Source of the DNA: Escherichia phage dhabil
DNA: 64,000 nucleotides
Sequence record: MN850621.1
Strand: one strand, 5' to 3'
Shown here one piece after another: positions 226 to 63,421 of the stretch. The position numbers were made by a program, and so were the translations under genes. Each line of letters opens with the position of its first letter. Position 1 is the first letter of the stretch. The notes under the pieces were generated by a model that saw only the letters and a program-made list of their open reading frames with translations, had not been told where the DNA came from and ran no database searches.

Positions 226-642
226 TTATGCGTAAATCGCCTTACCATAATGTTTGTACCAGGTAGGACGTTGTGCAATTTTTTCATCCAAACGGGCTTG
301 TGAAATAGCGATAGAAGCTTCGTGAGGAACATAATCACCACGGAATTCCTGAGGAATATCACTAATGTCCTGGACTGTAGTATCCTTGATATTAAAGCCA
401 CGTTTTAAACATTCAGCTATAAGCTCAATTTGACGCTTACGTAAAAATTCAAGCTTATCATAAAAGAATGTAACATGGCCTGTACCAAGGATAAAAGTAG
501 GGCTGATTTTAAAATCACGAACACGTTTACCGTTAGCAACATGCTTACGAACTGCACCGAAAACACGTGGTAATTCACGGTATTCAGCCATAAGGTGTTG
601 GTCGGCCAATTCAGATACTAAGGTAAGGTTGATACGAGTCAT
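226..642 (-). CDS. denV: endonuclease V, pyrimidine-dimer DNA glycosylase/AP lyase
   Basis: 138 aa, near-identical to T4 DenV as remembered ([26 protein letters not shown]...); SD AGGAG upstream. Confidence 0.95.
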
Positions 643-1191: not shown

Positions 1192-1195
1192 AATA

Positions 1196-1221
1196 CCTCC
1201 TGAGTATAGGAGGTATTTATA
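1196..1221 (-). promoter_or_regulatory. late promoter TATAAATA abutting an SD-sequestering hairpin for gene e
   Basis: Minus strand reads TATAAATA-cctcct-atactc-AGGAGG-tatta-ATG; the inverted repeat cctcct/aggagg contains the SD. Confidence 0.5.
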
Positions 1222-4740: not shown

Positions 4741-4908
4741 TTAATAAAGACGAGTTACTTCATATTTACCCAGTTCAGATTTTTTTGCTTCAATACGCGT
4801 TGCGGCTAGATTAGCAGCCTCTAGTGAAGAAAATTGGACCACTTGGGAAGTATTCTGCCTTACGCCACCTTGTGGGTGAGTAACAAAAACAATAAGAACA
4901 TTATACAT
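4741..4908 (-). CDS. hypothetical small protein (55 aa)
   Basis: Below the ORF-track size cutoff; found by manual translation (MYNVLIVFVTHPQGGVRQNTSQVVQFSSLEAANLAATRIEAKKSELGKYEVTRLY), SD TGAGGAAAATATT. Confidence 0.35.
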   Translation of the reverse strand: MYNVLIVFVTHPQGGVRQNTSQVVQFSSLEAANLAATRIEAKKSELGKYEVTRLY

Positions 4909-4929
4909 AATATTTTCCTCAGAGTAAAC

Positions 4930-8597: not shown

Positions 8598-8633
8598 GAG
8601 GACATTATACCCTGTCCTCTGAGGGTTGTAAAC
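8598..8633 (-). promoter_or_regulatory. strong sigma70-type early promoter with stem-loop over the -10
   Basis: Minus-strand -35 GTTTAC (8628-8633), -10 TATAAT (8604-8609), 18 nt spacer; inverted repeat gaggac/gtcctc flanks the -10. Confidence 0.55.
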
Positions 8634-9035: not shown

Positions 9036-9092
9036 TATGCTCTCCTCAAATTACGGGCTCATAATATCTCAATCATGAGCCCGTGTAAACAA

Positions 9093-9391: not shown

Positions 9392-9420
9392 ATAGTATCA
9401 CGTTTAAAGGAGGTGTAAAC
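9392..9420 (-). promoter_or_regulatory. T4-type early promoter cassette (-35 GTTTAC, -10 TACTAT)
   Basis: Minus-strand GTTTAC (9415-9420), 17 nt spacer, TACTAT (9392-9397), followed by the conserved leader agacctatcaaaacaacagagtgaa. Confidence 0.55.
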
Positions 9421-10338: not shown

Positions 10339-10414
10339 TGGTCGAGACAGTAGGGATCGAACCTACGACCCAGGACTTAGAAGGTCCTTGCTCTTCCTTC
10401 TGAGCTATGCCTCG
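10339..10414 (-). tRNA. tRNA-Arg (anticodon UCU)
   Basis: Manually folded cloverleaf: acceptor cgaggca/tgtctcg, anticodon stem aggac/gtcct, loop cuUCUaa, T-arm gtagg-ttcgatc-cctac, encoded CCA. Confidence 0.8.
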
Positions 10415-10418
10415 TATT

Positions 10419-10493
10419 TGGCGGACATGCATGGATTCGAACCATGGACCAATTGATTAACAGTCAACTGCTCTACCACTGAGCTACACATCC
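10419..10493 (-). tRNA. tRNA-Asn (anticodon GUU)
   Basis: Cloverleaf: acceptor ggatgtg, D-arm gctc-agtggta-gagc, anticodon loop cuGUUaa, T-loop ttcgaat, encoded CCA. Confidence 0.75.
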
Positions 10494-10497
10494 AAAT

Positions 10498-10571
10498 TGG
10501 TGGCCCTGGGTGGAATCGAACCACCATCCAGCGATTATGAGTCGCTCGCTTGACCGTCCAGCTACAGGGCC
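10498..10571 (-). tRNA. tRNA with CAU anticodon (Met, or Ile if lysidine-modified as in T4)
   Basis: Cloverleaf: acceptor ggccctg, anticodon stem agcga/tcgct, loop cuCAUaa, T-arm ggtgg-ttcgatt-ccacc, encoded CCA. Confidence 0.8.
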
Positions 10572-15741: not shown

Positions 15742-16178
15742 CCTAATTTTTTCAGTGAATGTTCGGTAATCAATCTAAAGTTGATACCCATTTTATCTGC
15801 GGTAGCTTTAGCGGCTTTCCACTTGTCACTATTCACAGACCAAGTATAATGTTCGTTAATATATCTCTTTTTAGCGGCAGTGGTCATTTTTACCGGAATC
15901 GCTGGAGGGTGGGTCTCTTTAAAAGGTTTGACTTCAAAAAAGAATTGTTGACCATTATCAAACTTAACCCAGAAGTCCATATAATATCGACGTTTCTTTC
16001 CTTCAGCATTACAAAAATATGGAATCACAACCTCTTCTGAATTCCATTGGACTACATTAGGATGATTATCAAGCCATCTCATTAGCCATGCTTCCCAAGA
16101 GGAACGATATTGGATTTTCTTCCAGTCACCTTTATATTTTTGTAAGTTTGTAGGTTTAAATTTCCCTGAGTAAGCCAT
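15729..16178 (-). CDS. 4: head completion protein gp4
   Basis: 149 aa ([21 protein letters not shown]…); synteny with 2 and 53. Confidence 0.85.
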
Positions 16179-16189
16179 AGTTGCCTCCT

Positions 16190-16212
16190 TATAAATATTA
16201 ATATTATTTATA
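16190..16212. promoter_or_regulatory. divergent late promoters: TATAAATA (+, 16190-16197) for gene 53 and TATAAATA (-, 16205-16212) for gene 4
   Basis: Exact T4 late -10 consensus on both strands in the 46-nt intergenic region. Confidence 0.6.
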
Positions 16213-16224
16213 CTCGGAGGCCCT

Positions 16225-16827
16225 ATGCTCTTCTCATTTTTCGATCCTATCGATTACGAATCAAAAACAGTCAAGCCGGATTCGGGCTCATTAACAAATG
16301 CCGATGTATTGAGCGTGCCGATGACTGATATATTTAGAAATTATAAAGAATATTTTGATAAAGTGGCTAAAAATTATACACTAAAGACTTATTATATCAA
16401 TGGGGCCCCTCGTCCAGAAGAATTGGCCCATCTTCTTTATGGCAATGTCCAATTATATTGGGTTCTACTTATGTGCAACAATATATATGACCCTTATTAT
16501 GGATGGATTACCGGGCAAGAAGCAGCATATCAAGCGGCAATCCAAAGATATTCTACCGACGGCGGAAACCAGGTCCTTTACCATGTAAACGAAAAAGGTG
16601 AGAAATTCTGGAATCTTGTCAACACACCGGAAAATCCGTATACTTGGTATGATAAAGGCGATACAGAAAAACGTTATCCTCAATACGAAGGTCCATTAGC
16701 CGCAGTAGATATTTACGAGGATGCCATTCGTAAAAATGAATATAAGCGCGAAATAAAGATTATTGACCCTAATGATATTGAGTCTTTTATTTCTGCCCTT
16801 ATTCGTGAAATGGAGAAAGCCCTCTAA
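16225..16827 (+). CDS. 53: baseplate wedge protein gp53
   Basis: 200 aa, high identity to T4 gp53 (MLFSFFDPIDYE…YINGAPRPEELA…QLYWVLLMCN…DPYYGWIT). Confidence 0.9.
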   Translation: MLFSFFDPIDYESKTVKPDSGSLTNADVLSVPMTDIFRNYKEYFDKVAKNYTLKTYYINGAPRPEELAHLLYGNVQLYWVLLMCNNIYDPYYGWITGQEAAYQAAIQRYSTDGGNQVLYHVNEKGEKFWNLVNTPENPYTWYDKGDTEKRYPQYEGPLAAVDIYEDAIRKNEYKREIKIIDPNDIESFISALIREMEKAL

Positions 16828-54535: not shown

Positions 54536-54557
54536 TATAAATATAATTATATTTATA
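54536..54557. promoter_or_regulatory. divergent late promoters: TATAAATA (+, 54536-54543) for uvsW and TATAAATA (-, 54550-54557) for inh
   Basis: Exact late consensus on both strands in the 55-nt intergenic region. Confidence 0.5.
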
Positions 54558-58172: not shown

Positions 58173-58184
58173 TATTTATAAATA
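58173..58184. promoter_or_regulatory. overlapping divergent late promoters TATTTATAAATA (gene 26 on minus, gene 51 on plus)
   Basis: TATAAATA on + (58177-58184) and on - (58173-58180) sharing 4 bp. Confidence 0.55.
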
Positions 58185-58204: not shown

Positions 58205-58957
58205 ATGGCTAATATAGTACGTTGTGAAATGCCCGATGGAGTCCACCGATTTAAACCTTTTACAGTAGCTGATTATCGTGATTTTATTTTGATTCGAAAT
58301 GACATGAATAATAAATCACCTGAAGAGCAAAAACAAATTTTAGATGAGTTACTGGAAGAATACTTCGGTGAATATCCTATGTCATGGCGCCCGTATATGT
58401 TCATTGAACTTTACACGTCATCACTCGGCAAGACCAAAATTCCTATCCGATACACTTGCAGTAAGTGTGAAAAGGATAAACAAGTCTTATTCAATTTGAA
58501 ACAGGCCAAGTTAGATAACCCTACAATTGAAGTGGCTGGCTTGAAACTAACATTCAAATTTCCGGAAATAGAATATCACGACAAATCTGAATTGATTTTG
58601 AACACCCTCCAAACCGTCGAAGATGAAAATGGGACATATAATTGGACTGACCTTTCTGAAGAAGACCAGTTGGCCGTAATAGATGCTATAGACTTATCCA
58701 CTTTAGAGGATATAGTCAAACAAACAAGCCCTATTCATTTCGAACTCAAATATGGATGCTGTAATCGTAGAACAATTACGTATACCGATATTTTAGAGGT
58801 GTTTAAGCTTATAGTCAATCCGGATGAGATATTTTTATTTTACCAAATAAACCATTTATTGGTAAAGAACAATTATTCATTAGAAAGCATTATGCAGATG
58901 ATTCCAATCGAACGCGGTATTGCTTTGTCTTTGGTTGAAAAGGACCTTAAGAAATGA
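58205..58957 (+). CDS. 51: baseplate hub assembly catalyst gp51
   Basis: 250 aa from ATG 58205 (SD AAGAGGA); T4 gp51 is about 249 aa; the track ORF starts 51 nt earlier without an RBS. Confidence 0.8.
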
Positions 58958-62326: not shown

Positions 62327-63421
62327 TTGATAATGAAAGTAAAAGAAATTGACATTGACGTAGCCTCCTTGTTTAAAGGAGGTTCAAAGACCTCCGCCGG
62401 CCAGTCTAAAGCTAAACCGGTCCAAACTACAGTAACGGCCCAATACCCAGCAGAAAGGGCCTCTGGTAATGACACCTCTACGGATATGGTGTTAAGCGAT
62501 TTATATAAAAACGGGCTACTTTTTACAGCATATAATTTTAGCTCTCGTGTATCACCCGATTTGCGTAATGACCGTTCAAGCCAAATGACTAAAAAGTTTT
62601 CAAAAGCCGCTAGTAAACTTACCGGTAATACCGGAGGATTCAGTGCGGTTAAAAACTTGTTTAGTAACAACTCTAAAGGAGTTAAATTTGATAGCCAGGC
62701 TTTAGCCAATATTTTGCTCCCACGTTCTAAATCTGATGTTGATTCGGTTACCCATAAATTTAATGATGTAGGCGAATCATTAATTACTAAAGGTGGTGGT
62801 ACTGCTACCGGTATTTTGAGTAACGTTGCCAGTACTGCTGTATTTGGAGCATTGGAATCCGTAACTAACGGCGTAATGGCCGATTCAGGTGAGCAAATAT
62901 ACACAACCGCCCGTAGTATGTATGCAGGGCCAGATAACCGTACTAAGGTATTTACTTGGGAAATGACCCCTAGAAACGCCCAAGACCTTATTCAGATTAT
63001 TAAAATATACGAAATCTTTAATTACTATTCTTATGGTGAAACCGGTAACTCTGCCTTCGCCGGTGAATTAAAAGAGAAGATTGATACTTGGTACCGTTCC
63101 ACATTTAAAAAAGAAGCTATTGATAACTTTGACGGCAAACTATTAGGCGAAGGTATTACGAGCTTCCTTTCTAATGTTATTGTGGTAAGTAACCCAACTA
63201 TTTGGTATATTCGAAACTTTGGTGATAGTAGTTCATACGATGGCCGTGAAGATATTTTCGGACCCTGCCAAATCCAAAGTATACGATTTGATAAAACTCC
63301 TGATGGACATTTTAACGGTTTGGCTATTGCTCCTAACTTACCATCTACGTTTAGTTTAGAAGTTACTTTCCGTGAAATCATTACTTTGAACCGTGGCTCA
63401 CTTTATACGGAAGGATTCTAA
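62327..63421 (+). CDS. 48: baseplate-tail tube junction protein gp48
   Basis: 364 aa, same length as T4 gp48; synteny. Confidence 0.85.
   Translation: MIMKVKEIDIDVASLFKGGSKTSAGQSKAKPVQTTVTAQYPAERASGNDTSTDMVLSDLYKNGLLFTAYNFSSRVSPDLRNDRSSQMTKKFSKAASKLTGNTGGFSAVKNLFSNNSKGVKFDSQALANILLPRSKSDVDSVTHKFNDVGESLITKGGGTATGILSNVASTAVFGALESVTNGVMADSGEQIYTTARSMYAGPDNRTKVFTWEMTPRNAQDLIQIIKIYEIFNYYSYGETGNSAFAGELKEKIDTWYRSTFKKEAIDNFDGKLLGEGITSFLSNVIVVSNPTIWYIRNFGDSSSYDGREDIFGPCQIQSIRFDKTPDGHFNGLAIAPNLPSTFSLEVTFREIITLNRGSLYTEGF

Follow-up and report, generated by a model that had tools for sequence, protein, structure and literature searches.

A probable Dhakavirus counterpart of the T4 gene e leader switch at the nudE-e junction

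The DNA analysed here is a 64,000-nt stretch of Escherichia phage dhabil (MN850621.1), referred to as the window, which is assigned to Dhakavirus (JS98/dhaeg-like) by its 98.7% identity to Escherichia phage dhaeg. Its minus strand carries nudE, followed by gene e (Table 1). In dhaeg, the counterparts of these genes are annotated as a nudix hydrolase and a soluble lysozyme, and the gene order around the pair agrees with both T4 and dhaeg. The T4 ortholog of nudE is an early gene. The gene e product shares 74% identity with that of T4; the lysozyme, termed diverged in the initial annotation, thus differs from its T4 counterpart, but just moderately. The TGA stop of nudE (1224-1222) and the ATG of e (1191-1189) enclose a 30-nt spacer that is entirely occupied by a late promoter box and a hairpin, as is the spacer in T4. 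Read on the minus strand from 1224 to 1189, the junction is TGA TATAAATA CCTCCT ATACTC AGGAGG TATT ATG, with ...ctcttt preceding the TGA and gat... following the ATG. The sequence and interval originally reported for this element (1192-1221, minus strand) match this reading exactly, whereas the spacer given there as 'tatta' wrongly includes the A of the ATG and is in fact TATT.

Table 1 Features of the nudE-e junction and of the upstream region, in window coordinates
Feature	Position	Strand	Basis
nudE (NUDIX hydrolase), 149 aa	1222..1671	-	ORF; Pfam NUDIX, E = 2.6e-15
Late promoter box TATAAATA	1214..1221	-	Directly after the nudE stop; sequence, enrichment, placement
Hairpin 5' arm AAUACCUCCU, with anti-SD CCUCC inside	1208..1217	-	MFE and centroid structures
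Predicted late transcription start, sixth base after the box (+/-1)	1207..1208	-	T4 -13 to -6 rule
Hairpin loop AUACUC, 6 nt	1202..1207	-	Sequence and fold
Hairpin 3' arm AGGAGGUAUU, consisting of the SD AGGAGG (1201-1196) and the spacer up to the AUG	1192..1201	-	Sequence and fold
Gene e, soluble T4-type lysozyme (endolysin), 162 aa	703..1191	-	ORF; Pfam Phage_lysozyme
Sigma-70/T4-early-like promoter match TTTACT-17-TATAAT, 10/12	4900..4928	-	Consensus scan
Further early-type promoter matches	8604-8632, 9061-9089, 9392-9419	-	Consensus scan

The two arms of the hairpin form a stem of 10 perfect base pairs. Within it, CCTCCT (1213-1208) faces AGGAGG (1201-1196), while TATT (1195-1192) pairs with the last four bases of the late box (AATA), and the stem ends at the base before the AUG. 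An SD-sequestering hairpin had been proposed earlier with a stem of 6 bp; the hairpin is present, but its stem is longer by the four pairs at its base. The 33-nt segment folds at -14.1 kcal/mol, compared with -4.1 +/- 2.1 kcal/mol for dinucleotide shuffles (z = -4.75), and none of 200 shuffles is as stable. The signal is strictly local, because the fold of the 91-nt context is indistinguishable from that of shuffles (z = -0.67). The SD AGGAGG of e is fully paired, with a predicted probability of 0.99-1.0. Rfam contains no family for the hairpin or its surroundings, either at gathering thresholds or at E<=1.

A stable stem directly after a stop codon, with GGAG inside it, might act mainly on the fate of the RNA, as a terminator or attenuator of nudE, as a 3' stabiliser, or as a shield against or target of an endoribonuclease such as RegB, which cleaves GGAG in the SDs of early genes (PMC3014915). 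The terminator scan is silent at this position, however, leaving a terminator reading unsupported, and the sequence after the stem, UAUGGAUAUUUUUG, has no U-tract. A role in RNA fate would also leave unexplained the constant placement of a late promoter that removes the 5' arm, and we regard it as very improbable. The preferred reading is that the hairpin controls translation of e.

SD pairing in silico, taken alone, is common in this AT-rich genome. In an SD-accessibility screen with windows anchored on the SD, 14 of the 60 SD-bearing genes of the window show a predicted SD pairing of at least 0.8, with e among the top six (0.99). The composite of a late box and a directly adjoining anti-SD/SD inverted repeat is present at a single place in the 64 kb, against 0.007 expected (2/300 shuffles). 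No anti-SD was found after any other late box of the window.

The late box itself is well placed to act as a promoter. The window contains 19 copies of TATAAATA against 8.2 expected, and although 94% of it is coding, 15 of the 19 sit 18-48 nt upstream of a gene start on the same strand. Being both enriched and placed in this way, TATAAATA marks real late promoters in this genome; the boxes behave as late promoters across the window, and the e box, 22 nt from the start of e, fits among them. The earlier proposal of a late promoter abutting the hairpin is thereby borne out. In T4, the late box occupies positions -13 to -6, with A frequently replacing T at -13 in relatives of T4 (PMC1524935). Applied to the box at 1221-1214, this rule puts the predicted +1 at 1208 or 1207, so that by analogy with T4 late transcription would begin with either the final base of the 5' arm or the initial base of the loop; mapped 5' ends of T4 e are mentioned in the Fig. 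5 legend of PMC3014915. The predicted late RNA begins U/AUACUCAGGAGGUAUUAUG, its 5' arm is reduced to at most one base, and its 5' end is predicted to be unstructured (z = -0.04). A late mRNA beginning there would be unable to form the hairpin.

The consequence for ribosome access was expressed as constrained-ensemble opening energies, since mean pairing probability overstates structure in the late RNA. Opening the stretch from the SD to the AUG in the window is predicted to cost 14.6 kcal/mol on the read-through RNA versus 4.2 kcal/mol on the late RNA. The corresponding predictions for T4 are 16.3 kcal/mol on read-through RNA versus 4.0 and 1.2 kcal/mol on the late RNAs of its two promoters, and those for 12 other lineages are 10.6-18.7 versus 1.0-7.7 kcal/mol. 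The predicted costs of opening the ribosome-binding site in the window match those of T4.

In T4, the nudE-e spacer reads TATAAATAccttcTATAAATActtAGGAGGtattATG, and the element folds at -13.3 kcal/mol (z = -4.57). The two loci share the order nudE-spacer-e, the SD-to-AUG spacing, near-identical predicted energies and a TATAAATA box that overlaps the 5' arm. The 10-nt arms differ at one base, where T4 has U.G and the window C-G. Having the same nudE-e spacer and arms one base apart, the window site is an ortholog of the T4 gene e leader. The loops differ: that of T4 is 10 nt long and carries a second TATAAATA, whereas the 6-nt loop of the window has no second late box and only the upstream box is present. 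The match to the control of T4 gene e claimed in the initial annotation is sound as regards the orthologous leader, and incomplete as regards the promoters, since the window has the upstream one alone.

The T4 mechanism is credited to McPheeters et al. 1986, Nucleic Acids Res 14:5813 (cited in PMC3014915 and PMC2988022). Early transcripts running into T4 e have been demonstrated to form an inhibitory structure, lysozyme synthesis from the long early transcripts is about 100-fold lower, and RNAs from either late promoter, which do not contain the 5' strand, are well translated (PMC3014915). Similar e leaders with a late promoter in the region of the 5' strand have been predicted for closely related T4-type phages, whereas Aeh1, 44RR, 25, 31 and FelixO1 have e and no such structure (PMC3014915). 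JS98 is not named in the text of that review (Uzan & Miller 2010).

For the comparison across Straboviridae, e loci were gathered from IMG/VR and annotated genomes, yielding 14 distinct leaders from at least eight lineages. They come from Tequatrovirus, Dhakavirus, Gaprivervirus, Marfavirus, Karamvirus, Jiaodavirus, Yersinia MHG19, Pectobacterium PM2, Cronobacter S13 and three more contigs. The leaders were compared by an SD-anchored pair table, an arm-swap test and a covariance-model alignment; MAFFT misregistered the 5' arms. All 14 place a late-type box against an SD-pairing stem, while arms, loops and register vary. The SD core is paired in every one (14/14), and the NATAAATA box lies at the 5' arm in 13. 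The conservation of the switch asserted in the initial annotation thus holds, and it had already been predicted for relatives (PMC3014915).

Several lineages carry changes in both arms. In Gaprivervirus and MHG19, CCUCC/GGAGG is replaced by CCCC/GGGG, the paired U and A being missing from the two arms of MHG19. Locus L017 has an A-U pair at a position that is C-G elsewhere. In the Karam/Marfa/Jiaoda group, the AAUA/UAUU pairs at the base side are lost and UAUC/GAUA pairs at the loop side are gained. The stem of Cronobacter S13 reaches 14 bp, and CTAAATA, the Aeh1-type late motif (PMC1524935), lies at the junction of its 5' arm and loop. A second complete, loop-borne late box occurs only in T4-type (Tequatrovirus) leaders among the lineages examined.

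These comparisons bear on whether the complementarity is simply a by-product of a strong SD standing beside a late promoter with a C/U-rich flank, with no regulatory role. Each arm is constrained for other reasons, the 5' arm by the late promoter and its flank and the 3' arm by the SD, which gives independent grounds for conserving both. Strict column-wise covariation is also weak, with one pair changed on both sides and 43 of 500 shuffles scoring as high; this weakness reflects a stem with few variable positions, the leaders differing instead by indels or by shifts of register. Back-to-back units of late promoter and SD can moreover give automatic palindromes, as between genes 53 and 4 at 16178-16225. 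Against this, native arm pairs fold better (mean -12.9 kcal/mol) than chimeras (-9.7 kcal/mol), and the native mean is reached in 0 of 20,000 permutations, a figure that ignores relatedness and is thus not a true probability. In the covariance-model alignment, 86.7% of cells are paired, versus 31-59% with the register slid. A by-product is unlikely, since no other late box in the window precedes an anti-SD, the arms change together in the CCCC/GGGG, L017 and UAUC/GAUA leaders, and work on T4 has demonstrated both the formation of the structure and a repression of about 100-fold (PMC3014915); we consider it very improbable. A leader whose pairing is maintained for regulation remains the preferred reading, and its sequence, orthology, predicted structure and conservation with co-varying arms are direct observations of this analysis.

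The SD hairpin is absent from the lysozyme leaders of phi92 and Aeromonas AS-szw (Ceceduovirus), the latter in agreement with the list of Aeromonas phages without the structure in PMC3014915. A match in Aeromonas 44RR (H70) was rejected as an e homolog, being the lysozyme domain of gp5. Among lysozyme homologs outside Straboviridae, the phi92/rV5-like loci L023-L030 have a small SD hairpin, UUCCUU-AAAUAA-AAGGAA, which phi92 itself does not have, and L032/L034 likewise carry a small hairpin over the SD. In the homologs L035-L037, a CCUCAUAAAUA... hairpin covers the SD and a CATAAATA-like box lies inside the 5' arm. The SD hairpins outside Straboviridae could be chance products of AT-rich leaders, or could follow the same logic together with gp55-type late transcription.

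For the hairpin to act, RNA initiated further upstream would have to cross nudE. A consensus scan places the nearest strong early-type promoter match on the same strand at 4900-4928, with further matches beyond it (Table 1), and detects nothing resembling a terminator over the minus-strand interval that runs from about 10846 down to e. Together these make read-through into e plausible, and the upstream matches, although weak evidence, are plausible candidate sources of the read-through RNA.

Early in infection, RNA polymerase from these early-type promoters would read via nudE into e, and the read-through RNA would fold the 10-bp hairpin of AAUACCUCCU and AGGAGGUAUU, burying the SD and the spacer up to the AUG. 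The hairpin would keep 30S subunits off the message, and lysozyme synthesis would be avoided for as long as the cell is required. At late times, the gp55-type promoter TATAAATA, whose sequence overlaps the 5' arm, would initiate RNA near the end of that arm, at about its last base. In this late mRNA, the SD would be exposed at a distance of 8 nt from the 5' end, and translation would proceed. For three elements of this scheme, namely where late transcription begins, the occurrence of read-through RNA and the strength of the repression, the account relies on T4.

A leaky version of the switch can also be conceived, in which ribosomes terminating at the nudE UGA unwind the lower stem and provide, by design, a low level of early coupling between e and nudE. 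The geometry invites this reading: the stop lies at 1224-1222, the stem begins at 1217 with a gap of 4 nt, and a terminating ribosome covers several bases beyond the stop codon. The SD, however, belongs to the upper six pairs (CCUCCU/AGGAGG), which would be out of reach, and T4, with nearly the same arrangement and 7 nt separating its stop from the stem, nevertheless represses lysozyme synthesis about 100-fold (PMC3014915). Leakiness by design is very improbable; some leakage is possible and would modify rather than replace the switch model. We consider it highly probable that the window site is orthologous to the T4 gene e leader switch and, in this Dhakavirus, couples the timing of transcription to translation.

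The same logic is found in other T4-type leaders. In those of I-TevI (td intron), I-TevII, I-TevIII, segB and Aeh1 mobE, a hairpin hides the ribosome-binding site on early or middle read-through RNA, and a late promoter beside the ORF produces an RNA too short for the hairpin (PMC2988022, PMC3014915). These leaders differ from that of e in belonging to unrelated genes with unrelated sequences, and I-TevI additionally autorepresses its own late promoter and has the control of its translation linked to splicing of the intron. T4 soc and gene 49 are grouped with e as inhibitory structures sequestering the SD and/or AUG (PMC3014915); they are other genes with other structures, not orthologous to the window site. 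Riboswitch expression platforms and RNA thermometers have the same output, in which an anti-SD pairs with the SD and 30S binding is blocked. In riboswitches and thermometers, however, ligand or temperature decides on a single RNA, whereas in the e leader promoter choice yields two RNAs with different 5' ends, and there is no sensor domain.

Other late boxes and palindromes of the window were recorded alongside. Divergent late boxes lie at 16190-16197 (plus strand) and 16205-16212 (minus strand), between gene 53 (baseplate wedge) and gene 4 (head completion). The surrounding palindrome at 16178-16225, GCCTCC..TATAAATA..TATTTATA..GGAGGC, would pair the SDs of the two genes. It is most likely the automatic outcome of two back-to-back units of promoter and SD, and both of its arms stand on one RNA only with antisense read-through. 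Divergent late boxes are also found at 54536-54557, between a 223-aa gene of the size of inh (prohead-protease inhibitor) and a 498-aa gene of the size of a UvsW-like helicase. A further divergent pair, at 58173-58184 between 207-aa and 250-aa baseplate genes, consists of boxes on opposite strands that overlap each other (TATTTATAAATA). For the gene at 58205-58957, the fold prediction pairs the SD with a UCUCC situated upstream of that gene's late box. A perfect palindrome of the anti-SD/SD type, CCTCCTTGTTTAAAGGAGG, is situated at 62364-62382, about 30 nt inside the 5' end of a gp48-like baseplate tail-tube-cap gene (start 62333).

On the downstream side of e, the window departs from T4. There, ipIII and ipII follow e; here both are absent, and denV (226-642, minus strand) comes directly after e, across a spacer at 643-702. 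This spacer contains a T4-early-type promoter match at 696-669 (TTTACA-16-TACTAT, with TG upstream). The e-denV interval varies among related phages, some of which carry an inserted ipII or ipIII, and this variable content marks it as a hyperplastic region.

Beyond denV, a GC-rich noncoding element of about 125 nt occupies 100-225 of the minus strand, bounded by the stop of denV (226) and the ATG of the gene that follows (87). Conserved copies were recovered from 977 phage records, with identities of 80-90% in 580 of these, and are mostly unannotated. The T4 copy lies right after denV (NC_000866, ~64814-64938) and overlaps an annotated 5' extension of the vs.8 ORF. In Tequatrovirus, Dhakavirus and Jiaodavirus, the element is always located just 5' of a vs.8-like gene of unknown function (phrog_1488). 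Two copies are present at the Jiaodavirus locus L098, and in one Pseudomonas phage the element lies within a tRNA cluster. Its core, CTGTAATAAGGTCGAGCC, is invariant. Compensatory changes are seen both in an outer helix (GGGAG/CUCCC, GGGAA/UUCCC, GGGG/CCCC) and in an inner hairpin (CCTCAC/GTGAGG, CCTCAT/ATGAGG, CCTTAT/ATAAGG), and the 5' half exists in two alternative forms. All reading frames are broken by stops, in the window as well as in phage G28.

The denV-downstream element has no Rfam match at E<=1. Its covariance model (R1) finds no second copy in the window, including the tRNA cluster at 10342-10571 (minus strand), which consists of three genes, Met, Asn and Arg according to the dhaeg annotation. 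T4, for comparison, has eight tRNAs plus rnaC and rnaD; homology of the element to rnaC/rnaD was rejected, the covariance model being without a match there. A literature search on vs.8/denV returned dengue papers only. The element looks like a candidate undescribed structured RNA, either a vs.8 leader or a small stable RNA, or else a recombination module.

In conclusion, orthology and conservation support the interpretation of the e leader first proposed from the sequence. The mechanism has been in the literature since 1986 and was noted as conserved among relatives of T4 by Uzan & Miller (2010), so the switch as such is already known and the site opens no new question. Two aspects may be new: the confinement of a loop-borne second late box to Tequatrovirus-type leaders, and the remodelling of the arms in several genera with the pairing kept. 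A broader, tentative reading, which we hold to be possible although doubtful, regards the e-leader switch as an ancient, evolvable Straboviridae module with co-evolving arms, of which Dhakavirus would embody a tighter form that has one promoter, a fully paired stem and a loop free of promoters. This reading would take in the indel-compensated CCCC/GGGG stems and the 14-bp version of S13, with CTAAATA replacing TATAAATA.

For annotation, the element would serve as a reliable marker of the true start codon of gene e and of its late promoter. In phage engineering, changes to the nudE-e spacer would risk premature or absent lysozyme synthesis. To judge from the sequence, a classic phage timing device appears to be intact in the therapeutically relevant coliphages of the JS98/Dhakavirus group, where it would tie translation to promoter choice and prevent endolysin synthesis from early read-through RNA. 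If the broader reading is true, the single-promoter state of Dhakavirus could shift the amount or time of lysozyme synthesis, and hence the timing of lysis, relative to T4.
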